From positions 530,968,001 to 531,032,000 of the forward strand of contig CM097882.1 in the NCBI GenBank assembly GCA_044892505.1: a stretch of 64,000 bases of DNA, written 5' to 3'. Source of the stretch: Schmidtea nova (taxonomy: Eukaryota). Each line of letters begins with the position of its first letter. Position 1 is the first letter of the stretch. This document shows positions 17,815 to 64,000 of this stretch, one piece after another. A program made the translations under genes and the position numbers. The notes beneath the pieces are model-generated. The model had not been told where the DNA came from, did no database searches, and saw only the letters and a list, made by a program, of their open reading frames with translations.

Positions 17815-17826
17815 AGAGGCTGTCTC

Positions 17827-37965: not shown

Positions 37966-38627
37966 GAATAAAGGGCTTAAGTACGAGGAGTGGGTGTTTC
38001 TTAAACCTAAATGTTATAGTCTTTTAGGTGACGAGCAAACTAATAAAGCTAAGTGGCAACATTAGCGGGGCTGAACTCAATGCTGTAATTAAAGAAATGA
38101 ACCTCGCGATTAAGTGGGATCTGTCGTCGATAATCGATAATCGTCCAAAGTTGGCTGGGGTCATTACTGACAGATAGTCATCGAGTAAAAACTCACGGAT
38201 CTTCCGAGATGCTAATTCGTAGGCGTCTACAAATTGTTCATGAACTTCAACTGGCATACAACTTAAAGATAGCCGTGAAGTTTGTCCCGACAGAGAAAAA
38301 CAAGGCCGACGTTTTAACTAGAGTTAAGAAAGCTTGGCTTACATGGGTTAAACAAGTAAGTTGTTCAACTATATCGATATCCGACAGAATAAGGAAGTGC
38401 CACGAGGCGCATCACTTCGGAGTGGATCGAACTCTGTATTTCGTAAAGAAGTTGCTTCCTAAGGTATCTCGTGGAGCGGTACAAGGTGTGATATCAAACT
38501 GTATTAAGTGTCGAACGATAGATCCGGCACCTGTAAAATGGAAACATGGAAATTTGGCGGTGGAGTGTAATTGGACCAGATTGGCGTTAGACGTGACTCA
38601 CTACCGGAATAAGCGTTATTTGACGTG
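37966..38627 (+). pseudogene. Mosaic: pPolB fragment (37966-38064) joined to a second gypsy-type RNase H-integrase fragment (~38058-38627), which is interrupted by the giant element
   Basis: ENKGLKYEEWVFLKPKCYSL (pPolB), then AELNAVIK..NLAIKW, KFVPTEKNKADVLTR, HEAHHFGV..CIKC (HHCC) and RLALDVTHY..YLTC, cut at TGTTGGG. Confidence 0.75.
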
Positions 38628-39189
38628 TGTTGGGATTATGGGTGGGTTTTAAGTAATTCAACTGAATAGTTAATCATAAATTGAACGACTATTGATGAGT
38701 ACGTATACTAGGGATTCCACGCCCATAACCATACATAACATGACTACTACACGTGTATGCCCTTGCCTATTCCCTACTAGTCAAGTTGGTACTGCATACG
38801 GTGGTGGAAAAATGATGGGCAGGTGAGCTTTGTTGCCAAAACTACTCCCCATTTATCTTCCCTCGGGTCCTTGCTGCCGATAGAAGGTCTTACGCATTTA
38901 CATTCTATGGATGTTCGCTTCCCAATGAATTTTATACTATCTATCCTCATGATCTATCACACGCTTTTCCCACTTTGCACTTTCCTTAAATGATCTACAA
39001 GGTGATTAATCAGTCTCTACGTATAAACGGTCGGTTTGAGAAAATTACGGATGAGATTTTCTATTTCGATGATTTAATTGTTGTTAATTTATTTTATTTA
39101 GTAAAATCACCCGATGAGAGACAAAATTTACACAGAAATACTTTTATTAAAATAATAAAAACAGGTTGTTATTTGACATTGATGTTTTT

Positions 39190-39774
39190 CTATGCAAACT
39201 CCAGACTAATCTCCTGAATCAGCTCCGCTTCGGTTAGGGAGTCCAAGTGGTGGATTTGTTCGTCCAGGCGCTTCGCAAATTCTCGGCGACGACGACGCTG
39301 TCGCGATCCCATTCGTTGTTTTCGAAGCTGTTTGGTTAGTACAGGTACTGACGCCATTGTTCTCGATGGATCACTGAGAAAAGCAGGCAAATCGGCCGTT
39401 ACAAAAGAGGGGGCCATTAAGATACCATCTTCCGTCCCGCAAGCGACATCTTGACAAGTACTTTGTGCCCAGCGCTGAGCCGTGATCGGCCGGATTAGCG
39501 CTCGTAATTCGGAGTCGATGTAACTTCTTGTTACTGCGTTTAGGCAATTTCGTAGTTCTCTCTGGACGGCGTCTAGTTCCAATTTAGTGGCGGCCAGTGC
39601 TTCCTGCATTCGCTCGAGTTTTCTCGATTGGTCCTTCATTTGTTCGGGCGAGAACCACTTCGCTCTCAATTCATCATTGGCGACCGTGAGTCGCTTGATC
39701 TGTCGCTGCTGGTCCCTCAACTTCCTCTCTTGGATTTGTCCCATAATTTTCTTAGAATTTTCTGAAGTCGGCAT
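39190..39774 (-). CDS. Unknown 194-aa protein: N-terminal coiled coil, Arg-rich motif (RQRRRRR), acidic/Leu-rich C-terminus
   Basis: Intact ATG ORF with a CAG acceptor 5 nt upstream; more GC-rich than its flanks. Confidence 0.6.
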   Translation of the reverse strand: MPTSENSKKIMGQIQERKLRDQQRQIKRLTVANDELRAKWFSPEQMKDQSRKLERMQEALAATKLELDAVQRELRNCLNAVTRSYIDSELRALIRPITAQRWAQSTCQDVACGTEDGILMAPSFVTADLPAFLSDPSRTMASVPVLTKQLRKQRMGSRQRRRRREFAKRLDEQIHHLDSLTEAELIQEISLEFA

Positions 39775-40101
39775 GTTGTCTGAATATTATAACGATAAAT
39801 TCGCTGTAGGACCCATCAACAATGTTATTTTATTTATTCGACTATTTATTATGGGTAAACGAGATGCATACTAATGGTTTTAATTATTGAGTTCTTTGCC
39901 GAATTATTTAACTATCTAATTATTGAAGGCTCGAAAGATTTAGTGAACTAATTTGATATTAGTAAATGAATTTCCTAGTGACTATACAACTACAACACTG
40001 GATATTAATAACTCTACATTACAACACTATTAACAAAATGAGACACTTCAGATTTCTCTAAAACATTTATTAAATTCAAAAACAGGTGGCCATCGATTCA
40101 A

Positions 40102-40578
40102 CTAGTCATCTTCGGTCATTTTTCCTCGGTACGAAAATATCGATCTGATTTGCAAATTTGTGTGGATTCCTGTGATATTGGACGAGGCTTGCTGGAAACG
40201 GATTCTCTCAGCTTCTCGAAGGGGTCGTATTGCTGTATGGAACTTGAACCCCAATTCCTTGAATGTAGAGGCTGGAATGAACCCCCAGTATATTACACAT
40301 CTCGGGAATCCTCTTTTATCCAACATCAGGACGAACCAGGCGGCGTGCCATGATTCGAATTCCTCGTCTGGAATGATTGGCCAACTAGCGCATCCCCGGT
40401 ACCATACGTGGTGCCGTGGATGGTCCCATACTGTAAATGGACATGCGGTTTCAAGCTCTCGGCGCCATGCCCACATCTTTTGATGGATTTGTTGCAGAAT
40501 TTCGAAAGGAGCCGGCTTCAATGGGCTAATTCGGGCTCGTTCTTGTCGCTTTTTGATGGTGAATCTGTGTTTAGTCAT
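40102..40578 (-). CDS. Unknown 158-aa Trp/aromatic-rich protein
   Basis: Intact ATG ORF with a TAG acceptor 4 nt upstream; GC-rich island; no family recognised. Confidence 0.55.
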   Translation of the reverse strand: MTKHRFTIKKRQERARISPLKPAPFEILQQIHQKMWAWRRELETACPFTVWDHPRHHVWYRGCASWPIIPDEEFESWHAAWFVLMLDKRGFPRCVIYWGFIPASTFKELGFKFHTAIRPLREAERIRFQQASSNITGIHTNLQIRSIFSYRGKMTEDD

Positions 40579-42142
40579 GATACTAGAACAATACCGAATT
40601 TATAATAGTTAACAATTTAAATCAATAATTAATTATAGTAGATGTTATCTCTCATCGTGATGCCTTTATAATTTGCCTACCCCTTAGACCTTAACTGAAA
40701 TCAAGGAAAAACTGTTGTTCGTTACGGTATGCATTACTCTCGTATCTGCTTAGATTTATCTGTTTACGATCAATATTATAGTCGAAAATGGGTGATTTGT
40801 CTGCGTGGATATCGAAACACTGATACCTCAAAACGGAAACTCTCTCTCATCATGTATTCCCTAGCTTATTCGAAAACACTCTTTTGTATCAAATGCGGTC
40901 GACATAATTTTTCTAAGGTTTATTAGACGTTTATTTAGCAACTGTGCTGTAGTGAGGGTGAAAAATTGGGCCTCCTCACAGTCGAAAAATTCTTTCTTAT
41001 CCTACATCGTTAGACTTTCTCCGAAAATCGCCTCCTCGATAGCTAAAATGATTGAAAATTAGTTCCCCGGATTTGTTGGGTGTCCCATGTGCAAATCTCG
41101 ACCACTACTAATAGAATCATATTTGGTTATTTATTACTTTACCGTGTGTGGAGCCCTCGAGCACCACGCCACGGACGGACACCTTGGGAACCTAAAGCTC
41201 CCAACGGCGCAAAATTAATATATCAATATTTTTACAATTAATCGTAACAAGATTTAAATAATCAAAAATTTAATGATAACAAAAACATGCATAGTAAAAT
41301 CAATAAATCAAATTTTACCAAGTAATTCCACACAATTGATCTGATTAAGTTCGGTAGTAATACAATAGTCTGAATTAGTTTGGGGTCAAAATCGCAATCT
41401 AACAATGTCTGAATTTTTTGTCTCAACAAAAGTCTAAACTCTAAATTTCAGTCTAACAAAGTCTAAGTTGTACAAAGTCTAAATTTTAGTCTAAACTCTA
41501 GTCAAAAGTCTGATTTTATGAAAAATCTGATCAGTATTTATACTGATCAGTCGTGTCTAGACCGACCAATCAGGTTCGGCCAGTTTCATGGTGGTTTTTA
41601 ATTATTGTTTTTGATTCTAATTAATTTTTATTTTTTAGATTGTATTCTTCCTTGGAGGTCCGGGTTTCCAAAAACAATTATTCAATAACAAGTACTTTTA
41701 TTTGGTTTTAATTATTATTATTTGTATTTTATTTTGTTTTTAGATGTCTCCTGGGCCCGTTAATATCTAGAAATTCATTTATTTTTATTTATCGCTTATA
41801 CTTAGTTTATCTATATTTTAACTATATTACTCCTTTCTTTTAACAAATAAATATTCCCCTTTTTACCTTATTTTTCTCTTTTTTGTTTTAATTAATCTAC
41901 TTTTATTTCACTTTTCCCTCTATTTGGCTGGCCCAACATCACTCGAGGACCCCTAAAATTGCGTCCCGCAATTAATTATACATTTACACCTATATCATCA
42001 TACATAAAAATTAAGCAGATAAATGTCAATTTACATATACACAAAGAATCACATAAGGTGATAGATTTTATACGTAAGCACAAAGTCATATTATTGTTAA
42101 ATGTAAGTGGATCATACATACAGTGAATGTAATTTATCAGTT

Positions 42143-42798: not shown

Positions 42799-43860
42799 TT
42801 ACACAATCGTCTCATTTGGTTCGTAGAAACCTTCGTCCTGAGGCTCTACTTGGTTCGTGGGGAGTGGTATCCAAACAACCCTGCTCCTCCACATTTCGAC
42901 TTCATCTCGATACATGTGAGATATCTGGATCTCCTCGTCCAGCAAATATTCTAGGTAATTTGCTTGTTCTGTTAATGTTTCTATTTGCTTCTCTAATTCG
43001 ATTACTTTTGTCTTTTGTTCGTCTTCTTTTATCATTTTTGTTACGGCTGCCGTTATACTTGCTTCTTTGGGTATTGCTGGTACTGTTACTCGTTTCTGTT
43101 TCAATTCTTCGTTTTCTTTCATCAAATTCGTTAAATTTTCCTCATAACTTTGTTTCTCTTCCTTTAACCTTTCTCTGGTTCTTTTTAGCTCTATTTTCTT
43201 CTGGGTAATCACTCCTTGATAACCATTTATATCTCTCTTCATCTCTTCTTCTTTCTGATTCCATATTCCGGTGAGCATAATTTTCAGTTGTTCTTGATTA
43301 GCTAGTTCTTCTCCCATTCTTTGAACTTGATAGGTTAGTCCTTTAATTTTCTTTGCTTGTTCCCGGATAAATTGCTGTCTCTTTGTATTCCATCTTTTAT
43401 TCAACACTTCTTGGTGTATTTTCTGTTCTAACTCGTCTTTTAATTCGTCGATCTCTTTATATAATTTCCAGTCATCACTATAAGCTGTCCTTTCTATTAT
43501 TTCTCTAGCTTTTTCGTAAGATTCTTTCGCTTCTTTCTTCCAGTATCTTGCTTGTTCTGTAATCGAATACATCTTGTGTTCAGCTTCCATCTGCTGTCTG
43601 TCTCTTTCCTCTCGTCGCTCTTTCATCATTCTCTGGTAATATTCCTTTTGTTGTTGTAGCATTTTGTATACTTCTTCTATTTTTTCTCGACTTCTTTGAC
43701 TTGATCTTTCCGCTTCTTTTAATAATTCGGCTTGTCTCTCTATCTCCTCTTGCTTTCCATAATATGCATTGACCCATATTTCAATCTGTTCTAGATGATC
43801 GCTAATCGCTTCTGCTTGATGCATCGTAATTTCCTGTAAGCATACTTCGATATTTCCCAT
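42799..43860 (-). CDS. 353-aa long coiled-coil protein with an N-terminal MG (possible myristoylation)
   Basis: E/K/Q/R-rich heptad-like sequence; starts MGNIEVC. Confidence 0.7.
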   Translation of the reverse strand: MGNIEVCLQEITMHQAEAISDHLEQIEIWVNAYYGKQEEIERQAELLKEAERSSQRSREKIEEVYKMLQQQKEYYQRMMKERREERDRQQMEAEHKMYSITEQARYWKKEAKESYEKAREIIERTAYSDDWKLYKEIDELKDELEQKIHQEVLNKRWNTKRQQFIREQAKKIKGLTYQVQRMGEELANQEQLKIMLTGIWNQKEEEMKRDINGYQGVITQKKIELKRTRERLKEEKQSYEENLTNLMKENEELKQKRVTVPAIPKEASITAAVTKMIKEDEQKTKVIELEKQIETLTEQANYLEYLLDEEIQISHMYRDEVEMWRSRVVWIPLPTNQVEPQDEGFYEPNETIV

Positions 43861-43973
43861 TGCTATAATTACAGAAAAAAAATTTTTTAATCGGTTTATA
43901 TCAGTTATTTTTGTTTATATAATAATTTTTGGGTATTTAACTGTACATATTATTTACATGATCACTTCTCGTT

Positions 43974-45356
43974 TTACGTCAACCATCCTTTTCTATCCGC
44001 TTTCTCGTTCCTTTCCATTTCTATATATAAGGTGTCTGCATATAATCGTTCCCATAGGCTTTCTTTCGTTATAAACATCGGTTCTCCCGCTGCTAATCCA
44101 CATTCTGTGGTTGGTTTCTCGCTCGTACTCGCATGTTTCTCTGTCTCAAAGAATTTTTCTACTGGGTTTGTTACACTTCTGATTCTTACAATGACTCCTA
44201 CTTTCAAGGGCCATTTTACTAGGTCGTCGTATTCTCCTTTACATAGCGAGAAAAATATTGACACATGTGTTCCCCGTCCTCTTCCGTCTCCATTTGGGTA
44301 TAGCTTCAATCTCACTTTAGCTCCGTTTCTCCATAAATAAAATGGTGGGCTTATTACTGCTGTTTTCGTCATATTTCTGGCCTCTGTTAATTTGTCTCTA
44401 AAATCTGTCACTTTCCACACATATGGTGCTATTGGTAGCTTTTCCTCGGTATCCTGTGTGAGTTTGTTGTACTGGATTTTCATTCCTTTAGCCAATTCTT
44501 CGATAGCTTTTATCTTTTTCTCCATCTTTTCTCGTGTTAGTTCGAATTGCTCTCTGGTTTCCAACAGTAGGTTTACCATTATCTTGTGTGACTCTATTTC
44601 TTTTTCTAATTTTTTGATCGTTTGTTCGGTTTCTTTTGTTGCTTCGTTTGTCAATTCCGCATGCTTTAGCAATGCTTCCTCCAGATGTTGTTTTATGGTT
44701 TGTTGCGTTCTTTTCTCCATACATCCCTGTTTGTTATAAGGACATTCCCTTGGTTTCTCCGTGCACACTTTCCAATGTTCTTGTAATTTTACTTCTACCG
44801 TTATCTCGCATTCGTTTGAACATATTCCTACATATTGTCTACATACTTTCTCCTCTTTTACATTCAGGTGTTCTTCTTCGATCTTTCTCCTCGTTTCTCG
44901 AGTTCCACAATATTCACATAGACTTTCCTCTTCTTTACATTCATCTTTGTGCTGCTCTTTATTCTTTATAGTTATTTTTTGTTGGCATTTGTTACATTCA
45001 GTTCTCTTCTCTTCGCAGTTCTCCAGATGGTTCTCGAGATCGCGTATTTGTCCTTGCCATATACATGGTTGATTTATACATTCGGTTTTCGTGTTCATGA
45101 TTTCTCTCTGAGTTGCTCTATCTGGTCCGGTTTCTTCGAATTTTATTTGTCCTTCTTTGCATTCTGGACATTCTGGTGGTTTTTTCATACTTAACTCGTG
45201 TATGCATTTGGTACATACCCTGCATCCGCATAGGGTTTGTCTTGGTTTCAATATTATGTTTTTACAATTTACACAAGTGAGTCTCTGACTCCATTTCCTG
45301 TTCTCGGCTCTCAAAATTTCGATTATCCGCTCTTCGGCTTTTCCTTCTGTATTCAT
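43974..45356 (-). CDS. TRAF: Full-length intronless TRAF homologue (RING, TRAF zinc fingers, coiled coil, MATH/TRAF-C)
   Basis: RING CVNC..IL.KPRQTLCGCRVCTKC..CPEC; zinc fingers CINQPCIWQG..HLENC and CPYNKQGC; MATH YVWKV..F...SPPFY..G.KVRLKLYPNGDGRGRGTHVSIFF.L.KGEYD..VKWP. Confidence 0.92.
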   Translation of the reverse strand: MNTEGKAEERIIEILRAENRKWSQRLTCVNCKNIILKPRQTLCGCRVCTKCIHELSMKKPPECPECKEGQIKFEETGPDRATQREIMNTKTECINQPCIWQGQIRDLENHLENCEEKRTECNKCQQKITIKNKEQHKDECKEEESLCEYCGTRETRRKIEEEHLNVKEEKVCRQYVGICSNECEITVEVKLQEHWKVCTEKPRECPYNKQGCMEKRTQQTIKQHLEEALLKHAELTNEATKETEQTIKKLEKEIESHKIMVNLLLETREQFELTREKMEKKIKAIEELAKGMKIQYNKLTQDTEEKLPIAPYVWKVTDFRDKLTEARNMTKTAVISPPFYLWRNGAKVRLKLYPNGDGRGRGTHVSIFFSLCKGEYDDLVKWPLKVGVIVRIRSVTNPVEKFFETEKHASTSEKPTTECGLAAGEPMFITKESLWERLYADTLYIEMERNEKADRKGWLT

Positions 45357-45447
45357 TCTACAATGATATATACACTTAATTTGCTATCTATTTTTTGATT
45401 TTTCTTGTTTTTGTTTTTACATATTTACAATTTTTCGCTTTATTTAT

Positions 45448-45804
45448 CTACGGCTCGTTTGTTGAATCTGGTTCTGGGTCATTTTCTGATCTGTTTATTG
45501 CCCAATTTGTCCATCCATCCTCTGCTTCTTCTGTCTCTCCCATTGTTAAACGGTCTATCTCTATTGCTTGCCTTTGGTTTATGTCGCTTATCACTTGATT
45601 CTCTCTGGTAAGTTGCGTTATCAATCTCTGTTGCTCCTCGATTCTGTGGAGTTGTTCAAAACTATTATTATAACTTTCGGATAACAAATTCTGTTTCTCA
45701 ATTAACTGATTTTGTAGTGAGTTGATTGTTCGTATTAACATGTCACACTGGGCTTTCCATCGCATAGCCATAGTAGTTTCTGCTATTTCTTCCTGTTCGT
45801 TCAT
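45448..45804 (-). CDS. 118-aa coiled-coil protein of unknown function
   Basis: ATG ORF with a TAG acceptor 3 nt upstream; heptad-like, acidic C-terminus. Confidence 0.55.
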   Translation of the reverse strand: MNEQEEIAETTMAMRWKAQCDMLIRTINSLQNQLIEKQNLLSESYNNSFEQLHRIEEQQRLITQLTRENQVISDINQRQAIEIDRLTMGETEEAEDGWTNWAINRSENDPEPDSTNEP

Positions 45805-45929: not shown

Positions 45930-48392
45930 CTATATCACCATCACTGTCTTTCCTTCGTACCGCTCTTCATCTTCTATTTGTCTCCAAAATTCTTTACCTT
46001 TCGTCCTCCTTTGAAATTCTTTCTGTACTTCTTCCGGTAATTCTATTCTGTAGTTCATAATTTTTATATCTGGCCAATGTGTTATTGGTTTCTTGTTGAG
46101 TACATCGTATATCCATATTATTAATAACACTGTTATTACTGGAATAGTTGCTGCTAGTATTCCTAGACCAATTAGTTCTCTAACTTGTTTGTTTACATCC
46201 ATCTTCGTAATTTCACTCTGGTTAATCATTGGTCCGTATTGTCCCTTTAGTTTATTTAGTAGTTGTTCTCGTTCTTGTTGTTTTCTTTTAACTTCTTTAA
46301 TTACTTCTTCCGGCGTCCATCTTGCGTAAGGGTCTATTACTACTTGTTCTGCGTCCATTTGTTTCGTTGTCTGACTTAATTCTTTAAATTCGAGTTTTCT
46401 CACTTTCCCTTTGGATGTTGAGTTTACCGGTGTGTAGTACGTTTTGCATCTTTCCTGCTGATTACCCAGTATGTCCGTCTTTTCTATCGCACATATCTCG
46501 TATTCGCTATTGAATTTCAGATTTCTGATACTTATTTCCTCTTTTCCTTTCACGTTTCCACAGTCTCGTGGCTGTCTTTCCCTTTGTTTCTGAACTATTA
46601 CCCAACATATTTCTAACGTTTTATTGTCTATTCTCCATAGTATAAGAGTTGCTGTAGTATTCTTTTCGGTTTTTATTTGTATTTCTTGGTTTTTCTGTTG
46701 TCCATTAGGTTTAAAGGTAGTGGTATACCTCGCTTTTCCTTTGTTCCGTTGTCTTCTACTTTTTTGCGTTGTCTTTCCAGCTCTTGTTCTGGTGGGTGTT
46801 TTATATAATTTGCATTCCAATTCATTTACTGTTATTTTGTCGCTTTTCCTAATCAGGCATATTTCGTACGTTTGATTGCTTTCTAATCCTTCTATCTGTA
46901 TTGTGGTTGTTCCTCTGTTTGTTCGACATTGCGGCGGTGTATTCTGGTTTGTTTTCTTTTCCTGCTTCTTCCAGCATACGCCTTTGACGTCCGGTTCTAT
47001 TCCGGTTAACTCTAACATTATAGTTGTTCTCCGTTTGGTGCGTATATTTCTTCTTCTTCTTCTTATGAACTTTATTGCTTCCCCGGGTTGAAATGTTTTA
47101 CAAATGGTCGTTCCTTTCTTGTGTCGTTCTTTTTCTAGTAAACATAGTTCATACGTCCTGTCTGCTTTTACTTTCGATATCTTGGTTACTTTATTTGTTT
47201 TCCTTTTCCGACTCGTCTTTATTTCGCTTATGCCAATTTCTTCGTTGTTTCGGGCCCAACACTTTAGGTTGGTATTTTGTGTATCGTTCATCTCTGTTAC
47301 TGCCATTGTGTCAATGTCTATCCCTTCTTCTAACCGTTTTAACATTGTTAATATGAGTGCTAAACATAGTAATTCTGTTTGATAGGTCACTCTTTCGGTT
47401 TCATTTGTGGTTACTCTTACTTCGGGCTTGTCTATTGTAATTCGTATAGTTGGCGTTGTTCGTCTATCTATTGTCTGGGGTTTTTTGTTTTTTGTTCCTT
47501 GGGTCTCTGTTTTTCCACACTTTCCTACGACGTAGTCTCCTTTGGATGTCTGCTGTACTGTTATGGTTACTTTGGGCGTTAGGTAGTTTGCACATGCGAT
47601 TGTGTTGTGTGATCTTGGATTCTTTTGTTTTCTGATGGTGCATATTTTGTACCAAGTATCTAGCTCTAAGTCATCGATCTCTATGATTTCTTGTTCGTAT
47701 TCTGAGATCCTGCAATCCATTGGACTATTTTGTCCCGATATTTTGTCCTTTTTCGACCAACATACTCGTTCGATTCCTTTTGCGTTTCTAATTTGTATTG
47801 TCGCTCTTTCTTCACATATCATTCCTTGAGTTGGACTAATTAAGGTCATGATTACCGTTAGTAATAATAGTTCTGGTTTAAAGAATGGGTTTATTGTTTG
47901 TTTGTAGCCTGTTCTTTTTGCTTCGTTTTTATTTTTATAGTTGTTGTTTCTTTGTTTCTCAAATTCGTTTTTCTTATCATTTTTCTCTGTGTTCCTTCCT
48001 TTCTCTTCACTGTCCTCTTTATCTGATAACTCGTGATCCTCTGTATTTTCTCGAGTACTATCGTCGTTGCTTCCTGTATTGTCGCCTCCCCTTTGGTCGC
48101 TGAAAATGTCGTCCTCGACATTAATTGCTTCTATCATTTTTTCATACGTTATGGTTGTGAGTATACTTGCTTCATATTCTTGTGTTTCTGCCTGCTTAGG
48201 TATTTCATTATCGGTTAATTTACAATCTAGAATCTCTTTCTTGGCTTTTATCCAATTTTGAGGTACGTTTTCATTAGTTCTTTCCATTTGTCCGTACGTT
48301 CTGTTTCCTTTGGGTTGTTTGTGAATCGTAAATCTTTTCTTCTCATGAAGATGTCTATTATCTTTGGCCATTTGTTTATTATTAATGCACAC
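45930..48392 (-). CDS. Type I membrane protein with internal signal, four FN3-like repeats and a TM; probably the frameshifted C-terminus of the polyprotein
   Basis: Signal LLLLTVIMTLISPTQG; four repeats of W...I.xLxxxxxYxIC...C..(Y/F)x(T/Q)P; TM LIGLGILAATIPVITVLLIIWIY. Overlaps the pol stop, and one extra A at 48256-48259 would join the two. Confidence 0.75.
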   Translation of the reverse strand: MCINNKQMAKDNRHLHEKKRFTIHKQPKGNRTYGQMERTNENVPQNWIKAKKEILDCKLTDNEIPKQAETQEYEASILTTITYEKMIEAINVEDDIFSDQRGGDNTGSNDDSTRENTEDHELSDKEDSEEKGRNTEKNDKKNEFEKQRNNNYKNKNEAKRTGYKQTINPFFKPELLLLTVIMTLISPTQGMICEERATIQIRNAKGIERVCWSKKDKISGQNSPMDCRISEYEQEIIEIDDLELDTWYKICTIRKQKNPRSHNTIACANYLTPKVTITVQQTSKGDYVVGKCGKTETQGTKNKKPQTIDRRTTPTIRITIDKPEVRVTTNETERVTYQTELLCLALILTMLKRLEEGIDIDTMAVTEMNDTQNTNLKCWARNNEEIGISEIKTSRKRKTNKVTKISKVKADRTYELCLLEKERHKKGTTICKTFQPGEAIKFIRRRRRNIRTKRRTTIMLELTGIEPDVKGVCWKKQEKKTNQNTPPQCRTNRGTTTIQIEGLESNQTYEICLIRKSDKITVNELECKLYKTPTRTRAGKTTQKSRRQRNKGKARYTTTFKPNGQQKNQEIQIKTEKNTTATLILWRIDNKTLEICWVIVQKQRERQPRDCGNVKGKEEISIRNLKFNSEYEICAIEKTDILGNQQERCKTYYTPVNSTSKGKVRKLEFKELSQTTKQMDAEQVVIDPYARWTPEEVIKEVKRKQQEREQLLNKLKGQYGPMINQSEITKMDVNKQVRELIGLGILAATIPVITVLLIIWIYDVLNKKPITHWPDIKIMNYRIELPEEVQKEFQRRTKGKEFWRQIEDEERYEGKTVMVI

Positions 48393-51300
48393 TTTATATA
48401 CAAATTTTGGCCTTGTTCCATGAACTCGTTGATCCTGAATGCTGGTTCATTGGTGTTTGGGTTCATCCAATTGAGTATTGCTTCGGTTAGTTCAGCGTTA
48501 TGCATCATGGAATGTACGCTAGCTTTTTTAACTGTCCTTGTAAGGTATTCTATTTCCTCCTGATTTGTGATTGTTTTTATAAAATTTATCACTTCCCAAT
48601 TGTGTGTTAACAACGCTACGTCTAGTATCGAGCTGTCTTTGTTCGTTCTTCCCATGAGTCCTGGACCTGCTTCGTACAGTTCCTGTAACACTCGGGTTTT
48701 TGTGTTCGCTCTTGCTGCGAATATCATGAAGGTATCTCCCTTTTTATCTTTCATGTTCATGTCACTTCCGCAATCTTGCATCAACCGTGCAATTTCGACT
48801 ATCCTCCTCTCTTTTCTTGCTCGTAAGGCTCTATGTATTGGCAATACTCCATTCTTGGTTAATAAGAAAGTCACTGGCATTTCTCTTTTTATGGTCATCA
48901 TATCGTTTTCATTGTAAGTTCCTTCCGCGTATGCGTGTACCTTTTCCACAATTGCTCCGAGTATCTCCAGTGTATGTTTAGAATTTTCGAATTCTGGTAA
49001 TAGTTCTTTTGCTTTGTCCTGTATCGCATCTAACCTTTCTTGATATGGTACTTCTGCGTTGAAAAGTGGTGTAAATTTCCTTTCGCTTTCTCTTTCCTTT
49101 CGACATAGGAATTGTTTGCATTTCTCGGGGTGGTTTAATATGTCTATTAGTTTGTCATACTCCTCCTCCACCGTTTTGTATTTGTCTTGAAAATTGGATA
49201 TATCTTTGTAAGTTATCGTCTTGGTTAGCGATTTTGCACACCATTCCCTAATTTTCCTGAATAATGCTTCTTTTTCACTTTCGAATTTACATTCCTCTTT
49301 GTTTTCGGAAATTATGATATTTCCTCTGTCTAATAACATTAACAGTGTTTTCTGATCACAAACTAATTTTAATAGGAATTGTAATAACGCGTTTTGTCCT
49401 TCACTGTATACCTCGTTTATATTTAACACCCATGTATCATTTTCGGATCTTTTCCATTTTATTAGCTTGCGTATTGTTTTGCAGTTACCGATTTTTATTG
49501 CTTCCTTTATTATATCACCCTTGATCAGTTCGTCTATTTCCCAAGTGGTCTTTTCGATTATTTGTTTGAGCATTATCTGATTTGAGCTCCATATTGCGTG
49601 ATTCAAGACTGTTTTGTTTTCTCTATCGCGTTCCGTCCAGTTGAAATTGGCATTTATCAAAAGGTCTATTATTGCTTTATCCGATTTGTAGATGGCTGCT
49701 ACCATTAAAGGTGTTTCTTGTTCGCTATTCCCAAAACCAAGGTGTTGATTTGTTTCCTTTGCGATTTTTAGAAATTCTTTTACTCTCTCTACTTCTCCCC
49801 ATTTTATGGCATTATGTAATGCTGGTTGTCCTCCTATGTCTTGTAGTGAAAGTATTTCTGGAATTTTTTCCAGTAGTTCTGAAATGACTGATTTTGTTGG
49901 TAGTCCCCTTGCGTAATCACTAATTATCAATTGTATATCTCTTAATATATCGTCTCTGACATGCCATTTTCCCATTATTTCTCTGGCTTTTAGTACAATT
50001 TCCTTGTTTCTTTTTTCTTGTTGATTGTTTTCTGCTTCGGTACTTTCATTGGTTGCTCTGAGCATATTCATTCTGGCTGTCTGGGATCTGGTTATTATTC
50101 GTTCTTCTGGCGCTGTGGTTATTGTTTTTGGTACTTTCTTACATCTGCATGTATTAACGTATATTGGTCGTATCAATGGTCGATTAACAAGTTTTACCTT
50201 CACATTGTTTTCCTTTTTGTATATAACTTCGTAAGGGCCTTTTCCTGGTCTTTGTAGTTTTTTAACGGTTCCTGGTATTATTTCTGGGGTTTCTATCATT
50301 ACCCAATCTCCGGGTTTAAGATAATTTGTTTTAACGTTTTTCTTTTGATCGTGTAGGTCCTTGTAACTTTCTTGATAAAACTTTATGTTTAGTTCTGCTG
50401 TCTTCCATATCTCTTGCATTCGTTCTTTGAATTTGGTGACGTAATCATCTTCCTCCATATATTGAGACAAAGGTGGTTGATATTCAAGATCTATTGGCAT
50501 ATTGCATTCCCTTCCATACATTAATTGGAATGGACTCAATTTTGTTGCTGCGTGTATCGACATTCGGTATGCCATTAGACATAGCTTTATGTACTCATCC
50601 CAATCTGTTTGGTGTTTGCTTACATAATTGGATAACATTCGAATCAATGTGCCGTTAAATCTTTCCGTTTGTCCATTGGTTTGCGGGTGATATGGTGACG
50701 TTCGTAATTTGGCTATTCTGAAGTAGTTTGTTACCTCGTCTAATATTTCGCTCATAAAATTCGTCCCTTGATCTGTCAGTATTTGTTTAGGGGTTCCATA
50801 TCGACAACATATTTCCTCTACTAAAATTCTTGCTACTGTCTTTGATTTTTGATCCGGCATCGCAAATGCCTCAGGAAATTTAGTTAAATAATCCGTTATT
50901 ACCAATATATATTGATTCCCGTTTAAACTTTCTGGTAATGGTCCTATTACATCCATCGCAATGGTAGTCATTGGTTCCGCTGGTATTGGCATGGGTTTTA
51001 AGGGATTTTTCCATTTCTTCCCACTATCCTTTCTTGTGGCACAAGTTAAACAGTTCTTTATCCATTCCTTTACGTCCTCGTCCATTGTTGGCCAATAATA
51101 TTTTTGTCTCATGCGATCTAATGTTTTCTTATCGGACATATGTCCTCCTAGCTTTCCGTCGTGGTATTGAGTTATTATCTCTTTTCGTCTATTACCTGGC
51201 AGACACATTAATCGTTTCTCTCCATCTCGTATTAATAACCATCCTTTTTCTATTGTGTATCGATGTTGGTATTTCCTCATGTGTTCTTTTAACTCCGCAT

Positions 51301-54040
51301 TGTCTTTGAATACATCCATATTCCGTGAGCTTAGGAATTCTATGATGGGTCTTAGTTCTTTATCCTCTTGCTGATCCTTCTTTAACTCACTGAAATCCAA
51401 ATCCTCTGCTATCACTATGCATATTCTTTGCACTTCTGGGTCTGTTAGTTCCGGAAACGTTAATCTTGACATACAATCCGCGTTGGCATTCGCTTTCCCT
51501 GATTTGAATTTTATATCTGGTGAATATTCTTGTAATTGCATCGCCCATCTCATTAATCTGCTGGATGTTTCCTTATGTTGTCCTAGCCATACAAGTGGTT
51601 GATGGTCTGTGGTTATGCATATGACGTGTCCCCATAATAGATATTTAAAGTGTTTTATTGCTAATATTATTGCCAATGCTTCTCTTTCCGTTACTGAATA
51701 ATTCTTCTCGTGTTTCTTGAATGTTCTGCTATAATATCCGATTACTCGCTCTTTACCTTCGTCATCATATTGTCCTAACACTGCTCCTGCTGCATATCCA
51801 CTTGCGTCGGTTGCGAGTAAAAATGGCTTTTTGAAATCCGGGTGAACCAATATTGGTGCAGTTATTAGCTTATCTCTCAATGTTTCGAAGGCGGTTTGTT
51901 GTTCAATTCCCCATATGAACGATACGTCTTTCTTTACTAGCTCTTGGATTGGTTTTGCAATTCCTGCGTAATCTTTTATGAATTTTCTATAGTAACCGCA
52001 TAATCCGAGAAATTCTTGGATCTGCGTTATCGTCTTTGGTATTGGACATTCTTTTACTTTATCAATGTTTCTGGGATCCGGTTCCTTTCCTTTTGCGGAC
52101 ACAATATGTCCTAAAAATGTCACTTTCTCCTTTGCCCAATCGCATTTCGATGGTTTGAGCTTGAGTTTCCATTGTCTCAATCTCACAAATACATCTCTGA
52201 TATCTTGGATGTGTTGTTCAAATGTGCTCGAGTAGATTAGTAGGTCATCAATGTAAACCATGCATTGTTTTATGCCGTGGGTAACGAAATTCATACATCT
52301 TTGAAATGATGCTGGCGCATTGGTTAGTCCGAATGGCATTTTCCTAAATTGGTACAAGTCTCTTCCGATAGTGAAAGCAGTTTTCTCTTTGTCTTCTTCC
52401 TTCATTTTAATTTGCCAGTATCCGCTTTTCAAATCCAATGATGTAAAATATGCCGCTCCTTGTAATGTTAATAACATCTCGTTGATGTCTGGTAATGGGT
52501 ATGTATCCCGTTTTGTTACCGCATTTAATCTCCGATAATCAATACAAAATCGTTGTGTTCCGTCTTTCTTTTTCACCATTACAACTGGGAATTGCCACGG
52601 TGAGCAGCTTGGTTCAATTACTTCCGCATCTAGCATTTTCTGTACTTCCGCTTCTGCTACTGATTTTTGCGCTTCAGCTAACTTGTATGGTCTTAACGCA
52701 ATCGGCGTTTCGTCTGTTAGTGGAATCGTATGTAGTGTGACGTCGCATGTCCCTAGATCTAAATCGGATGCTGCGAATATGTCTTTATATTCTATCAGTA
52801 ATCTTTCTAGCTGTTTCTTTTGATCCTCATTCAATAGTTGGCTATCAATGTTCCAAGTGGGTTCTTCCTCTTTTACTCCTTCTTTTATTGGTATTTCGAT
52901 ATCTATCATTGGAGTTAGTTTACCCAATCTTTCATTTTCATAAATTATTTTATCCTCTTCATCGAAATTTACTACATTTATCGGGATTTCTCCGTTATCA
53001 TTCGCACTCACTAATCCCCTTGCCATTGGCAACGACTTTCTCTTTTCAAATCTTTTACTGGGTTCAAAGATCATGTCACCTTCTATTGTAGGATCTATTT
53101 TTACGAAACATATTTTCTCTCTCCGTGCTGGTACGATTATTTGTTTCGAACTTGTTACTTTTGCTTCTATTGCGCATATCTGTCCTGTCCTATCCTTTAA
53201 CCTCATTGTTCCGAGGTCAATAACTATTTCTTTAAATAATGCTGGCATTAAATCTGTGCCTATAATGCATGGTACGCTCAGTGCTGGTATTACTGCCACG
53301 TACGCTTCGATTTCTGTGTTTTGATGTTTTATCTTCACCCACCATCTTTCGGCAACTTCTACTACTTCTTTACTGCATGCTATTACGTGAACGTTGGTTC
53401 TCTCAATATCCCGTCTTTGTTCTTGTGGTATCCATTTTATATCTATTGCTGAGATATTTGCTCCTGTATCAATCATCGCTTCAATTTCCCTTCCGTTAAT
53501 TTCGATTGTTGTAGTTAATACTGGACCGGTGTTTGATGACATTACTGCAATTGTATGTGAGTCTCCTTGCGGATCTACGCTTCTGCACCGTCTCGTTCTA
53601 TAGTCTTCTGGTATCATAGGATATATGTTTGTCATCGGCATCATTTGCATTGTATTTTGTCTCATCCCGGGTGTTGGTTCTTGGTACATGGTTGGTGGGG
53701 GTGCGTAACACTTCCACATTTCCGCTGGATTCTTTTCGACGTACTGTGGTACTTGGTTTTTATATACTTGGCCTCCTTCGTTTTCATCATCATCGTCGTC
53801 ACTGGAATCGTCTTGGGTTCTGTACCCTTTCATTCTTTCCCATAGTCCTTTTCTCTCTTTCTTTAGTTGTTGTCTTGCTTGCTCGTTATTCATTATCTTT
53901 TTAAATTTTCGTCCCACCTCTTCATCGGTTCCTTTCATTTTTGCCAGTATTTTTAGGAGTCTCTTTATTCGGTGAATATCTTTTGAATGACCGTGTAATA
54001 CCATTGTTTTAGCCAAAAATGGTAAGAATCCTACCACCAA
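48248..54040 (-). CDS. pol: Pol: aspartic protease, RT, RNase H, integrase (HHCC, DDE, GPY/F) plus C-terminal ankyrin-like repeats
   Basis: AMIDTGANIS (~53465); RFCIDYRRLN, LDLKSGYWQ and VYIDD (~52250); LATDAS..TEREALA..TTDHQPL..NADCMSR; YHDGKLGGH..CLTC; MDVIGP, TDQGTNF, QTERFN; KGPYEV; then PALHNAI, TPLMVAA, TVLNHAI, LPIHRAL. Confidence 0.95.
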   Translation of the reverse strand: MVVGFLPFLAKTMVLHGHSKDIHRIKRLLKILAKMKGTDEEVGRKFKKIMNNEQARQQLKKERKGLWERMKGYRTQDDSSDDDDDENEGGQVYKNQVPQYVEKNPAEMWKCYAPPPTMYQEPTPGMRQNTMQMMPMTNIYPMIPEDYRTRRCRSVDPQGDSHTIAVMSSNTGPVLTTTIEINGREIEAMIDTGANISAIDIKWIPQEQRRDIERTNVHVIACSKEVVEVAERWWVKIKHQNTEIEAYVAVIPALSVPCIIGTDLMPALFKEIVIDLGTMRLKDRTGQICAIEAKVTSSKQIIVPARREKICFVKIDPTIEGDMIFEPSKRFEKRKSLPMARGLVSANDNGEIPINVVNFDEEDKIIYENERLGKLTPMIDIEIPIKEGVKEEEPTWNIDSQLLNEDQKKQLERLLIEYKDIFAASDLDLGTCDVTLHTIPLTDETPIALRPYKLAEAQKSVAEAEVQKMLDAEVIEPSCSPWQFPVVMVKKKDGTQRFCIDYRRLNAVTKRDTYPLPDINEMLLTLQGAAYFTSLDLKSGYWQIKMKEEDKEKTAFTIGRDLYQFRKMPFGLTNAPASFQRCMNFVTHGIKQCMVYIDDLLIYSSTFEQHIQDIRDVFVRLRQWKLKLKPSKCDWAKEKVTFLGHIVSAKGKEPDPRNIDKVKECPIPKTITQIQEFLGLCGYYRKFIKDYAGIAKPIQELVKKDVSFIWGIEQQTAFETLRDKLITAPILVHPDFKKPFLLATDASGYAAGAVLGQYDDEGKERVIGYYSRTFKKHEKNYSVTEREALAIILAIKHFKYLLWGHVICITTDHQPLVWLGQHKETSSRLMRWAMQLQEYSPDIKFKSGKANANADCMSRLTFPELTDPEVQRICIVIAEDLDFSELKKDQQEDKELRPIIEFLSSRNMDVFKDNAELKEHMRKYQHRYTIEKGWLLIRDGEKRLMCLPGNRRKEIITQYHDGKLGGHMSDKKTLDRMRQKYYWPTMDEDVKEWIKNCLTCATRKDSGKKWKNPLKPMPIPAEPMTTIAMDVIGPLPESLNGNQYILVITDYLTKFPEAFAMPDQKSKTVARILVEEICCRYGTPKQILTDQGTNFMSEILDEVTNYFRIAKLRTSPYHPQTNGQTERFNGTLIRMLSNYVSKHQTDWDEYIKLCLMAYRMSIHAATKLSPFQLMYGRECNMPIDLEYQPPLSQYMEEDDYVTKFKERMQEIWKTAELNIKFYQESYKDLHDQKKNVKTNYLKPGDWVMIETPEIIPGTVKKLQRPGKGPYEVIYKKENNVKVKLVNRPLIRPIYVNTCRCKKVPKTITTAPEERIITRSQTARMNMLRATNESTEAENNQQEKRNKEIVLKAREIMGKWHVRDDILRDIQLIISDYARGLPTKSVISELLEKIPEILSLQDIGGQPALHNAIKWGEVERVKEFLKIAKETNQHLGFGNSEQETPLMVAAIYKSDKAIIDLLINANFNWTERDRENKTVLNHAIWSSNQIMLKQIIEKTTWEIDELIKGDIIKEAIKIGNCKTIRKLIKWKRSENDTWVLNINEVYSEGQNALLQFLLKLVCDQKTLLMLLDRGNIIISENKEECKFESEKEALFRKIREWCAKSLTKTITYKDISNFQDKYKTVEEEYDKLIDILNHPEKCKQFLCRKERESERKFTPLFNAEVPYQERLDAIQDKAKELLPEFENSKHTLEILGAIVEKVHAYAEGTYNENDMMTIKREMPVTFLLTKNGVLPIHRALRARKERRIVEIARLMQDCGSDMNMKDKKGDTFMIFAARANTKTRVLQELYEAGPGLMGRTNKDSSILDVALLTHNWEVINFIKTITNQEEIEYLTRTVKKASVHSMMHNAELTEAILNWMNPNTNEPAFRINEFMEQGQNLYIKCALIINKWPKIIDIFMRRKDLRFTNNPKETERTDKWKELMKTYLKIG

Positions 54041-54043
54041 TTT

Positions 54044-56665
54044 TCAATTTACTTTCTTTTCTCTTTTATAGATGTCAAAACAGGCTAACATTTGCGTTAT
54101 TATTACCCGTATTATTTGTATAATTAGTATAACCCCAAGTATTCCTGCCATCATTTGTCCAAATATTAAAAATCTTCCCCACATCGCTTTCATCATGTTT
54201 TCCGTTGCCTTCTTAAAGTGGGCTGGTGACAATAATAATTCGTAATTTGGTCCACCTTGGTAATTTGTTCCTCCTGTTATTGTTACAATACTGGATAGCA
54301 CCGCTTCCCTTCTTGCTGGAAATAGTATGTTTTGTCTCGCTGCCTCTAAGTCTTTTGCGCTATAGAATCCCATATTACTTACATCTACGTCTTTAAATTT
54401 TCGTCCTTTTGATAGTTGCATCAATTCAAATTCCCTTGGTGCTGGTACCTCTGTTCTTGATGGAAACATAACCCAATTTCCGTCTGGTTTTTGGTATAGT
54501 GGTCCATATGCGTTGCTGCAATTGAAAGGATTTGGTTCGAAGCTTACTGGATTTATGATTCTTGTCACTGGTTGCACATATCTTACCTTCCCTTTGTATT
54601 CGATTTCTAGTTCGTTAGTACACTGACCTGGTTGTAGTTTTGTCATTGTCGCTACCTTCGCATTTGTCTTTTTACATATGTATACATACATCACCTCTCC
54701 GACTACCCTTCCAAAATGACCTTCTCTCAATGGTAATAATGGCATTACACTATCCGGGTTTGTGATTGCTACTGCTAGTTTTGTCTTTAATATTTCCCTA
54801 TTTAATATACAATCGTTATTTATTAAGTCGTAATACACTTTTTGTAGTGACGCTTGTCCTCTATGGAATAGAAAATCCATTTTATTATTCATGTAAAGGT
54901 GTAATTTAACATCGTTCGAGTGCACTTTGCGTTTCGCACTAGGTACTTCTTGTTTTGATACAAAAATGCCGGGGTAGTTGGTTTCCAACATGGCTACTCC
55001 GCATTTCAAGGCTGTTTTTCCTTTTACAAACCTCATTCCGATATCTGCATCTGAGGTAATTAGTACCGTTGGTGTATTTCTCATTTTAATTTGTTTTTCT
55101 TGTGTTCGGGTTTCAATCTTTTTCTCTCCCCGTACTGTGTCTTGAAGTATTTTTCCTCTTGCTGCCTCGTCTTCTTCTTCCTCTTGGAAGGTTTTCCCTT
55201 GTATCTCATCGAATTCTGCTTCCTTTAACAGTTGTAGTTGACATTCCTTTCCTCGTATCTGGTATGTTAAGGTTGACATACCGGTTTGGCAAGTGTTTGA
55301 CTCGATTTTGCACATGGGCAGGGTTTTCATTTCTCCCGTTGTTGGATCGAAGAATGCCTCGTACGTTTTTAATTCCACTGTATAAGTATCTATTACTACT
55401 AGGTTGGTTGCTGCTACTCCGAATATTGGATATGTTGCTCCTTAGCAATACCCTTCTCCTCCCGTAATAGCTCCTGCTACATAATATGTTTGTTGCAATA
55501 TCACTCCCGTTTTTCCTCTTATCTTTACTCTATCTCTAGTCTCTACTTCTCCATGTTTGAATAATTTTTCACAGTCTTCTCCTTGCAGCATTACCGATTC
55601 TCTTTCCGTTCCTGGCATCACGATTGCTGAATAATGGCGGTGCCCACAATAAAAAGCAAATCTGGTTTTATAAACTTTGCATTCTCTGACCATTGTTCTT
55701 ATCAGTTCAGCTTCCTGATATACGTGGTATAATTGTCTCTTTTTTAATGTTTTTAGCTCCGTTGGGGTTGCGTCTTTACATTGTTCTGTCCCTCGTAATG
55801 AGTATTTTTCACCTAATGCCATTTGATCGCAATCGAATACTTCAAATGCTGTTGCGCCGTCAGTACTAATCATCCATATTAACATCATCATAATAATGGA
55901 ACTCAAGTTTAGTGACGATTTCCCGTTTCCTGTTCCCGACTTTTCCTTTTCCAATTCTCCCAATATCTCTTCGAATTTCTTTTTCATATTTTTGGCTTGG
56001 TTTTTCTTTTGGTTCGTTTTTGTGAATGTTTCCCATCCTCCTTTACTGATGATGTACGGTTCTATTTCCTTCTCTATAATTTTGGCTGTATTCTTTATAT
56101 GTCTTTCAAGTGCTGTGGGTTTCAGTCGACCTCTACTCAGTGTCAACAGATTGTAAATTGTGTATGCCATAGCTATTAAATATTTGTTATCCGTCTCTGC
56201 TCCTTCCGTTAACTTCTTTATCAACATCGTGGTTCCTTGCCAATCTAGGTGGTTTGACCTTGTCTTTTCTTTTATTAGTTCTGGTAGGATTGGTGCGATG
56301 GCGCTATGTAGTGATTTCGCCCTTTCGCTTATGTCGTTTATTCTCCACCATTTTTTTAATTCTGGATCGATTATTGCTAGTATTTCCATTAACATCTTTG
56401 ATATCCATTCTTCGCCTTGGTATGTTTGTGTTGTTTCTTTTTCTTTCGTTTCGGCTATTTTATTTAGTTTCTTTAGACACAAATCCCATTGATCCCGTCT
56501 TTTTTCCTCTCTTGATTTTATAACTACATTTGCTGGATCCATCTTGGGTCTACCTCTAGGTCGTTTATCCATTGTCGTGCCCGTTTCTACTAATCTTGTT
56601 TCTCGTCCAGTTTCTTCTGTGACGTCTCTTGGTTCATTGGCTCTTTCTTCTAACAATCTTTCCAT
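54044..56665 (-). CDS. env: Envelope precursor: Bcl-2-like leader + signal + chuvirus-type (gB-like/class III) glycoprotein; one in-frame TAA at 55442
   Basis: ATA|FEVFDC......YSL...EQC start; ECKV.....YCGH..YS; C-terminal W..F..FGQ.MAG+LG++LII TM. ORFs 55442-56665 and 54044-55378 share one frame. Confidence 0.8.
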
Positions 56666-56722
56666 TTCTTGTGTGAATTGTACATTTTCTACATTTGCCC
56701 TCCTTGCTTCCTCTTCTGCTAT

Positions 56723-61930: not shown

Positions 61931-62245
61931 CAACTCTGGGCCTATATTCCCTCTGTTGTTATTTCTTATCACCTGCAACCCTGGGCCTATATTCCCTCCG
62001 TTGCTACTTAACAATGGTAACCCTGGGCTTATATTCCCTCCGTTACTACCTTTCTTTTTTTAAAATAATTGCAACCCTGGGCCTATATTCCCTCCGTTGC
62101 TACTTAACAATGGTAACCCTGGGCTTATATTCCCTCCGTTACTATCTTCCTTTAATTTTTAAAATAATTGCAACCCTGGGCCTATATTCCCTCCGTTGCT
62201 ACTCAACAACTGTAACCCTGGGCTTATATTCCCTCCGTTACTATA
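61931..62245. repeat. Seven-unit tandem array (AACCCTGGGC[C/T]TATATTCCCTCCGTT core) with an alternating A/B higher-order structure
   Basis: Units start at ~61931, 61975, 62017, 62071, 62113, 62170 and 62212. Confidence 0.9.
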
Positions 62246-62416
62246 TATCCGGATATCCCTATTGGCTCCTTTGGCCTCTAATTAATATCAATTATCTCAA
62301 ATGGCTCTTATGGCCTCAAATTCATATCTCAATTATCTCAAATGGCTCTATTGGCCTTAAATCATATCTCTCAATAACGCCTAGCTAGGTCATTCAATAT
62401 GGCTCTTTGGCCTCAA

Positions 62417-63103: not shown

Positions 63104-63565
63104 TTATAAATAAACTACAATTTTATCAGTTACAGAGAAATTGCACATGGGGCACTCATCACACTTATTCGCACAGTTTTTACAGAATCGAAAATGTCCG
63201 CATGGTAGAAACATTATTTGGATTTCACTGTCTTCGCATATGTAACATTGTTTATATTGTTTTGCTGCCTCGACCCCTTGCGACATCCATCGGTTATATG
63301 TTAGACTTAACTGCTGTTCTATATGTCGGCATCTGATATTCAACTCGGCATCCTCTAATCGTGCTTTGTACCATTTATATCGCGTATTTATATCGAGTTT
63401 ATTTACTTTCTCTATGATTTTTATTAACTCAGTTGTTTCCTCCGTTTGTGTCGTAGGTTCCTCATATTCGGATGCTCTTATTCGGGTTATTTTTTCGCAG
63501 ACTGTCTCAAATGTATCGTTCTCGGTGTTGAAAAATTCCTCGATTTCTTTCAGTTTTTCCTCCAT
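63104..63565 (-). CDS. 153-aa protein with a C-terminal IAP/MDM2-type RING finger (putative E3 ligase)
   Basis: CYIC......FLPCGH..FC..CA.....CPMC......IVVYL at the extreme C-terminus; no BIR seen. Confidence 0.85.
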   Translation of the reverse strand: MEEKLKEIEEFFNTENDTFETVCEKITRIRASEYEEPTTQTEETTELIKIIEKVNKLDINTRYKWYKARLEDAELNIRCRHIEQQLSLTYNRWMSQGVEAAKQYKQCYICEDSEIQIMFLPCGHFRFCKNCANKCDECPMCNFSVTDKIVVYL

Positions 63566-63918: not shown

Positions 63919-64000
63919 TGTTGGGATTATGGGTGGGTTTTAAGTAATTCAACTGAATAGTTAATCATAAATTGAACGACTATTGATGAGTACGTATACT
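63919..64000 (-). repeat. 3' end of the 5' LTR of the giant element (cut by the window edge)
   Basis: Identical to 38628-38709. Confidence 0.9.

Follow-up and report, generated by a model that had tools for sequence, protein, structure and literature searches.

A complete TRAF reading frame downstream of pol in a giant Burro-type LTR element of Schmidtea nova

The TRAF reading frame and the element around it

The 64,000-nucleotide stretch of Schmidtea nova DNA analyzed here (the window) contains on its reverse strand an open reading frame (43974..45356) that runs from ATG to stop without interruption and encodes a full-length TRAF protein of 460 amino acids. The protein is made up of a C4C4 RING (residues 28-66), five zinc fingers (93-227), a coiled coil (229-301), and a MATH domain (312-450). 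Pfam matched MATH_2 (E 8e-21, residues 312-447), TRAF-mep_MATH (E 2e-18), and zf-TRAF (E 1.5e-4, under the curated cut-off of that family), and phmmer aligned the TRAF-C/MATH domain with PDB entries for TRAF5, TRAF3, and TRAF2 at E values of 1e-22 to 1e-21. The RING of the window copy received no Pfam call; the RING-zinc-finger part matched TRAF2/3/5/6 structures by phmmer (5vo0 at E 4e-11, 7l3l, 3knv, 2ecy), and TRAF3_RING was called by Pfam in one copy of a related subfamily, C (E 1.4e-4). The RING ligands (C28-C31-C43-C45-C48-C51-C63-C66) are eight Cys residues, one of which replaces the His found at that position in the TRAFs used for comparison, for example Nematostella TRAF6. An AlphaFold2 model built from a 48-sequence alignment has a mean pLDDT of 91.8 and predicts a continuous helix of 73 residues (229-301) corresponding to the coiled coil/TRAF-N, with pLDDT above 90 up to residue 290, followed by a beta-sandwich (312-450) corresponding to the MATH domain. 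All of the top Foldseek matches to this model are TRAF domains. The uninterrupted ORF and the Pfam, PDB, AlphaFold2, and Foldseek results bear out the initial annotation of an intact, intronless RING-zinc finger-coiled coil-MATH gene. Judged from sequence and predicted structure, RING plus zinc fingers, coiled coil, and MATH are all present, which is an architecture of the TRAF2/3/5 type.

The TRAF gene sits within a Ty3/Gypsy LTR element of 28,582 bp with an internal region of about 22 kb. The LTR pair was traced from an 82-nt perfect repeat at the end of the window. The 3' LTR (3311 bp, 38628..41938, reverse strand) contains a TATA box and two internal ORFs; the 5' LTR (3291 bp, reverse strand) has its inner end in the window (63919..64000) and extends onward to G000:C1:531035209. 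Both have TG...CA ends, and they are 99.15% identical; with only 8 of 3291 aligned sites different, in addition to one 20-nt indel, the insertion is recent. The target-site duplication CGTG (38624..38627) is repeated directly beyond the far LTR, and the site of insertion is an integrase fragment of another retroelement (38209-38627). The TRAF had been described at the outset as retroelement-borne, and this description is upheld by the LTR pair, the TG...CA ends, the 4-bp duplication, and the presence of gag, pol, and glycoprotein between the LTRs.

The internal region is occupied, all on the reverse strand, by a giant polyprotein region (45930..60892) and several accessory ORFs. The order from the 5' LTR is a 153-aa RING ORF (63104..63565), gag (60197-60892), a 1037-aa region without assignment, a Bcl-2-like stretch and a fusion glycoprotein of the Monjiviricetes type (together 54044-56665), protease, RT, RNase H, integrase, and ankyrin repeats (48248-54004), an 813-aa polyprotein tail (45930-48371), a 118-aa ORF (45448..45804), TRAF, and a 353-aa ORF (42799..43860). 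Gag followed by protease-RT-RNase H-integrase, together with the LTRs and the short duplication, is the arrangement of a Ty3/Gypsy element. The polyprotein of the window copy is broken by four in-frame stops and one frame change; a single frame of more than 5000 codons is found in 33 of the 85 listed polyprotein matches of subfamily A, the commonest being 5140 codons (hand count). The 153-aa ORF lies just inside the 5' LTR and ends in an IAP-like C3HC4 RING (E 5.5e-12, Pfam); Pfam detects no BIR in it, and a diverged BIR could escape Pfam. The ankyrin repeats are matched by Pfam at E 1.8e-13. In a profile search with the Bcl-2-like stretch, Bcl-xL chains came first with one BH2-like match of 24 residues at a weak E of 1.4; Pfam matched no Bcl-2 domain in the element polyprotein, and a wide structure search with a 3-sequence AlphaFold model (pLDDT 51) returned no Bcl-2 row, its best Z being 5.6. 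The 118-aa ORF, of unassigned function, is present in subfamilies A, B, and C, as is the conserved 353-aa ORF, a coiled-coil protein without Pfam match.

Additional features of the element were observed. The 813-aa tail contains repeated modules and hydrophobic segments. One more repeat is present in a subfamily-B copy, for which Pfam also gave a weak Fn3-like match (E 0.0035), so that the tail may belong to a membrane protein containing repeats of the Fn3 type. The 3' LTR carries ORFs of 194 aa (39190-39774) and 158 aa (40102-40578) on the reverse strand with an acceptor-like site at each, and ORFs of like size and place are found in the B and C LTRs. The leader that separates the RING ORF from gag contains two tandem-repeat arrays (61931-62650; units of 42-57 nt and 30-31 nt). 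No Rfam match was found within 38000-64000.

The window also contains features outside this element. A separate 6.2-kb element on the forward strand (14876-21106) is flanked by 802-bp direct repeats that are 100% identical. It contains a HECT fragment (15320-16000) and a chimeric ORF (15916-17814) composed of an HSP70 fragment, a ubiquitin domain, and DUF1759 (BEL/Pao gag-like), followed by a 710-aa ORF without Pfam match. The HECT/HSP70/ubiquitin stretch was matched at 94-100% by 40 of 40 scored genome matches, and its sequence suggests a young LTR element that has captured host fragments in chimeric form. Elsewhere are a piggyBac-type transposase (9351-10442), a rhodopsin-family 7TM ORF (32597-33565), and a C4 zinc-finger fragment of the nuclear-receptor type (1814-2296).

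Copies of the TRAF gene, their selection, and their relation to host TRAFs

In a DNA search of the genome with the TRAF gene, the best 40 of 602 candidates were scored and all 40 matched at 98-100%. Copies in which TRAF lies outside the element were looked for among the retrieved loci. All 29 of the other TRAF loci retrieved matched the element sequence of the window on their flanks; in one of them the match on one side was short, and another had an internal deletion. The full TRAF ORF is kept in 24 of the 30 best DNA matches, a sample taken in order of similarity and thus favoring intact copies. A protein search with the MATH domain gave at least 86 subfamily-A matches at 95-100% and at least 64 subfamily-B matches at 86-88%. 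The Pfam family search added subfamily C, with at least about 75 dispersed rows by hand count, 62 of them with an identical 476-codon frame; all nine of the subfamily-C rows fetched were in element context. The genome thus holds at least about 225 element-borne TRAF copies in three subfamilies (97%, 77%, and 52% protein identity).

The place of TRAF within the element is also fixed. A polyprotein marker lies upstream of TRAF in 79 of the 86 listed A matches (74 at a distance of 9.5-12.5 kb and five more within 45 kb); in the other seven, not all of which were inspected, the marker was not found within 45 kb. Conversely, TRAF lies downstream of 78 of 85 listed polyprotein markers. Twenty A and B stretches were fetched, selected mainly on the basis of a long frame; in every one TRAF follows the 118-aa ORF and polyprotein-tail sequence, and 17 also have pol within 10 kb. 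These data indicate that TRAF is part of the element.

The same genome holds at least 150 copies of a fourth family, which has MATH alone within a polyprotein of about 5000 codons and whose RT-integrase region is 66% identical to that of the TRAF-bearing element. A test of one capture for the element TRAF and the polyprotein MATH gave a p-AU of 0.40, by which a single capture is neither supported nor rejected. In one deleted subfamily-C copy (L086, G000:C2:167485000-167494999), MATH is joined in frame with the polyprotein behind the protease region, an example of how the MATH-in-polyprotein layout can arise.

Selection was assessed by pairwise Nei-Gojobori dN/dS on natural copies, a check that the initial annotation had suggested. 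For TRAF, dN/dS was 0.12-0.15 between A and B (five pairs) and 0.07-0.12 within B and within C; the values against C (0.11-0.18, three pairs) come from dS of 1.9-3.1, which is near saturation and makes them unreliable. The RING, the fingers, and the MATH domain are each constrained (0.09-0.29 by domain). RT-integrase gave 0.02, and the two neighboring accessory ORFs gave 0.08-0.11, with A-B values of 0.08 (353-aa) and about 0.1 (118-aa). TRAF is therefore under purifying selection (0.11-0.18 between subfamilies), and the low dN/dS between copies indicates that the protein is maintained at the level of the replicating element. Could TRAF instead be carried along neutrally, or be a host gene that two LTRs happen to enclose? 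We found no points in favor of this reading and give it almost no credence: there are hundreds of dispersed copies in a fixed element context, dN/dS stays near 0.12 over a saturated synonymous distance, and the element context of the other copies makes the reading of a host gene between two LTRs fail. As a separate observation, the part of TRAF encoding MATH (44000-44450) has an A-B dS of about 0.5 versus 1.7 in pol, with third-position identity of 0.82-0.90 at TRAF codons 351-400; this pattern hints at recombination between subfamilies or overlapping constraint.

Host TRAF genes were compared with the element copies. The Pfam family search listed about 73 host-like TRAF rows, of which 20 were fetched. 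None of these 20 loci has collinear Burro pol, and two are near family-A LTR fragments. Most host-like rows fall in a dense cluster at about 405-455 Mb of G000:C2, where many are two-exon tandem genes that form a clade of their own. Several host TRAFs are single-coding-exon genes, so the intronless state alone does not indicate retro-capture. The Cys-for-His RING and an 'HLN..C' finger insert are common to the element TRAF and the host single-exon TRAFs. Among 1.84 billion representatives, the best single-stretch full-length relatives are 29-32% identical; ten of them were looked up, and these comprise four named planarian TRAFs (Dugesia japonica TRAF2-like A and Dendrocoelum lacteum TRAF-4, -2, and -5), a TRAF6 of Nematostella, a generic TRAF2, and four proteins without a name. 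A word-indexed protein search returned 12 distant proteins only, and no relatives were found in the phage collection and viral contigs searched.

In a full-length tree that took in seven of the host single-ORF frames, the element proteins form one clade (support 100/99) on a long branch. This clade lies inside a 20-row group that contains all four named planarian proteins, with the unnamed protein P0033 as its sister; the support for this group (95/85) is moderate, the composition of the element rows is skewed, and two unnamed long-branch proteins are in the group. The phylogeny with host TRAFs proposed in the initial annotation thus places the element clade among planarian TRAFs, short of the exact donor lineage. 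With MATH alone the element clade sits in an open fork. The first MATH tree used nine of the fetched element rows, and in a later one a long-branch host row (L071) and redundant rows were dropped; in the MATH trees, which together cover all 20 sampled host loci, none of these loci is nested in the element clade, and the two-exon C2 cluster is a separate clade.

The tree results bear on the direction of transfer. The element might have been the source of the planarian TRAF expansion through domesticated or retroposed copies, as would suit the several host TRAFs that have a single coding exon, a similar length, and the same odd RING, and the great expansion of TRAFs described for Schmidtea in the available part of PMC6109357. 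We regard this as improbable, given that no host locus fell in the element clade (20 sampled of about 73 listed host-like rows), that host genes pair with Dendrocoelum or Dugesia orthologues in the full-length tree, and that the two-exon C2 genes group by themselves. The absence of the sampled host loci from the element clade suggests that the element adds TRAF copies rather than host paralogues, and that capture likely proceeded from host to element. The proposal that the element amplifies TRAF paralogues in the host genome therefore holds for copy number, whereas for host paralogues the sampled loci give it no support.

Putative expression signals of the accessory genes

An ORF that comes third or fourth, behind a 15-kb polyprotein, needs an mRNA of its own. 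The ORFs of the cassette are on the same strand, separated by spacers of 125, 91, and 113 nt, and each has an acceptor-like site before its start; these spacers fall under 300 nt, a threshold for operon spacing taken from PMC12582326. The 91-nt spacer before TRAF (45357..45447, reverse strand) has AATAAA and TGTAAATA past the upstream stop and the splice-acceptor-like TGTATATATCATTGTAG one base before the ATG. The 113-nt spacer after TRAF (43861..43973, reverse strand) contains TGTAAATA and a T-tract, with TATAG two bases ahead of the ATG that follows. AATAAA is present in one of the three window spacers. The 25-kb strand has six occurrences of TGTAAATA, a motif similar to PUF and CFIm elements. 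Every one coincides with, or lies no more than 30 nt from, one of four stops, those of the polyprotein, the 118-aa ORF, TRAF, and the 353-aa ORF, and the motif persists in the B and C spacers.

All six accessory ORFs have a YAG ending 1-6 nt before the ATG. On the same strand this holds for 89 of 533 ATGs, and for none of six ATGs internal to the polyprotein. When at least five T in the preceding 12 nt were required in addition to YAG, five of the six accessory ORFs still qualified versus 13 of 533 ATGs. These frequencies should be read with the fact that the acceptor and TGTAAATA patterns were picked after the sequence was seen. The TRAF acceptor YAG is kept in 29 of 30 A copies and is also present in the two B and three C copies examined; an acceptor-like TAG precedes the ATG of the 153-aa RING ORF. 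The AG is missing in two sampled copies at other ORFs (L047 at the 118-aa ORF and L088 at an LTR ORF). Three sequencing runs of contigs of unrecorded kind covered coding and noncoding parts at even, high depth and gave no joint at the acceptors, a pattern uninformative about expression. The LTR TATA box, AGTATAAATAC near 41543, is invariant in six of six LTRs of the three subfamilies. A run of 17 A on the element strand (42700-42716), about 80 nt past the stop of the 353-aa ORF, resembles an embedded poly(A) tail.

One arrangement that would account for separate mRNAs is operon-like processing by spliced-leader (SL) trans-splicing, a proposal we hold tentatively, at a little under an even chance. 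A single LTR transcript would run through the polyprotein, the 118-aa ORF, TRAF, and the coiled-coil ORF; each cassette ORF would end in a short 3' region bearing TGTAAATA; and the host spliced leader would be joined about 100 nt further on, at the YAG that immediately precedes the following ATG, in the manner of flatworm operons. In Macrostomum, operons resolved by SL trans-splicing show spacing that peaks near 100 bp, and most neoblast-specific genes are trans-spliced, according to the part of PMC8629364 available to us; for Schmidtea, SL trans-splicing is described, with one SL enriched in stem cells, in the corresponding part of PMC12582326. Like flatworm SL operons, the cassette has genes on one strand at intervals of about 100 nt, each start being closely preceded by an acceptor-like site; the difference is that those operons are described for host genes, whereas here the arrangement is predicted for accessory genes of an LTR element.

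The acceptor sites would fit equally well with a mode like that of complex retroviruses, in which cis-splicing joins a single short LTR leader exon to every acceptor and the 3' LTR provides the end of all mRNAs, and GT(A/G)AG sites do occur in the LTR and leader of most copies. Arguing against cis-splicing, no GT donor is invariant across A, B, and C in the approximately 500 nt past the TATA box, other than the TATA box itself, in an alignment of six LTRs so poor that subfamily-specific donors could exist. Furthermore, each cassette stop is followed by TGTAAATA, which is what one would expect of ORFs with separate 3' ends, and cis-splicing does not require uniform spacers of 91-125 nt. We consider cis-splicing possible but rather unlikely. 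The acceptors, the TGTAAATA sites at the stops, the spacing of about 100 nt, and the lack of an invariant donor favor trans-splicing over cis-splicing or internal promoters. Trans-spliced accessory genes of LTR elements were not found in the literature searched; the 2018 and 2026 Burro papers may describe a splicing mode. If operon-like processing is correct, it would let an LTR element express numerous accessory genes by a route that we did not find described.

Predicted action of the protein and comparison with Burro elements

TRAFs are trimeric adaptors and RING ligases. On balance we find it fairly probable that the complete TRAF is a separate, conserved accessory gene of a Burro element, likely derived from one host capture, and that its product is likely a trimeric pro-survival adaptor/ubiquitin ligase. 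RNAi of host planarian TRAFs (Smed-TRAF-2A/B) increases cleaved caspase-3, as reported in the available part of PMC7586133, and Burro1 IAP is reported, at second hand, to protect stem cells in that of PMC13465017. By analogy, the element TRAF would tilt host signaling of the TNF-receptor/JNK/NF-kB type toward survival of cells that harbor the active element. We think that the odds slightly favor such a pro-survival or defense-dampening action, exerted through a receptor-binding groove that is changed relative to host TRAFs.

The groove itself supports more than one interpretation. In an alignment with PDB chains, the 'NSSSF...NIASGCP' segment of the TRAF3/5 MATH domain corresponds to 'HASTS...GLAAGEP' in the element TRAF, a segment that we take to align with the receptor-binding groove of mammalian TRAFs. 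The groove-region changes are present in all three subfamilies, including the Glu in 'GEP', a position at which host planarian TRAFs have small or polar residues. Because this segment is changed, partners may differ and a decoy role is possible; receptor binding may have been lost rather than redirected. As a dominant-negative decoy, the element TRAF would trimerize or compete with host TRAFs and block immune or wound signaling, a role with which both the altered groove and the long branch leading to the element clade are compatible. A decoy needs the TRAF domain only, as in the MATH-only Burro family of the same genome, yet here the RING and all the fingers are under purifying selection as well, and we consider a decoy unlikely. 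A pro-survival adaptor remains the reading we prefer.

The initial annotation had grouped TRAF with RING, Bcl-2-like, and ankyrin modules as an anti-apoptosis and immune-modulation kit more typical of large DNA viruses. The RING ORF and the ankyrin repeats were found, the Bcl-2-like match is weak, and a role of this kind is plausible by inference; the closest comparison is to Burro and not to large DNA viruses. A more speculative proposal, which we rate as doubtful, is that the accessory genes form a host-SL-processed operon, possibly stem-cell-preferential, through which a complete captured TRAF ligase, encoded by hundreds of intact copies and so outnumbering host TRAF genes, aids cell survival in regeneration, in a host-transposon mutualism beside B-IAP. 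A practical consequence of the copy number is that planarian TRAF/MATH counts, expression values, and RNAi designs mix the host expansion, which consists of tandem genes with many on one chromosome arm, with several hundred transposon-borne copies.

Jurka 2007 and Grohme 2018 are said to be the sources for the Burro1/GYPSM1 elements, and the Burro1 B-IAP study is reportedly that of Lee et al. 2026 in Dev Cell. Burro1/GYPSM1 of Schmidtea mediterranea are giant Gypsy-like LTR retrotransposons, and MATH_TRAF_C, BIR, ankyrin, BCL2-like, and env are already described as planarian Burro cargo (PMC6431247, as far as the available text goes). The present element likewise has a total length of about 30 kb, an internal region of more than 20 kb, env between gag and pol, and ankyrin repeats. 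It shares with Burro1, as described in that text, the polyprotein of about 5000 codons, the mononegavirus-like nature of env, TRAF-related cargo, and a RING accessory gene; Burro1 has BCL2-like sequence before env, and here the weak stretch lies at the matching position. The difference is that Burro1 is described with MATH_TRAF_C only, inside the polyprotein, whereas here a complete TRAF has its own ORF downstream of pol. For Dugesia tigrina, the same text describes a Burro-like element with an ORF1 of 5,140 aa without MATH, comparable to the commonest A frame here, and with MATH_TRAF_C on a separate accessory ORF. The position given for that ORF is upstream, whereas the TRAF of the present element is downstream in a three-gene cassette.

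The literature searched yielded no account of a full-length downstream Burro TRAF, of the selection on it, or of how it relates to host TRAFs; the 2018 and 2026 papers may contain one. Burro1 B-IAP is likewise a host-derived cell-death regulator on a Burro element; in the available part of PMC13465017 it has BIR plus RING and its stem-cell function is shown, whereas here the RING ORF has no Pfam BIR and the role of TRAF is predicted. TRAF would thus be a second fully formed candidate for host-cell manipulation by Burro, beside the published IAP. Planarian host TRAF2-like proteins share the domain order, the Cys-for-His RING, the finger insert, and often the single coding exon; they differ in that identity is about 25-32% and that the element TRAF is mobile, present in hundreds of copies, and changed in the groove region. 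By these sequence comparisons the element is of the Burro type, and it extends a cargo that was already partly described.
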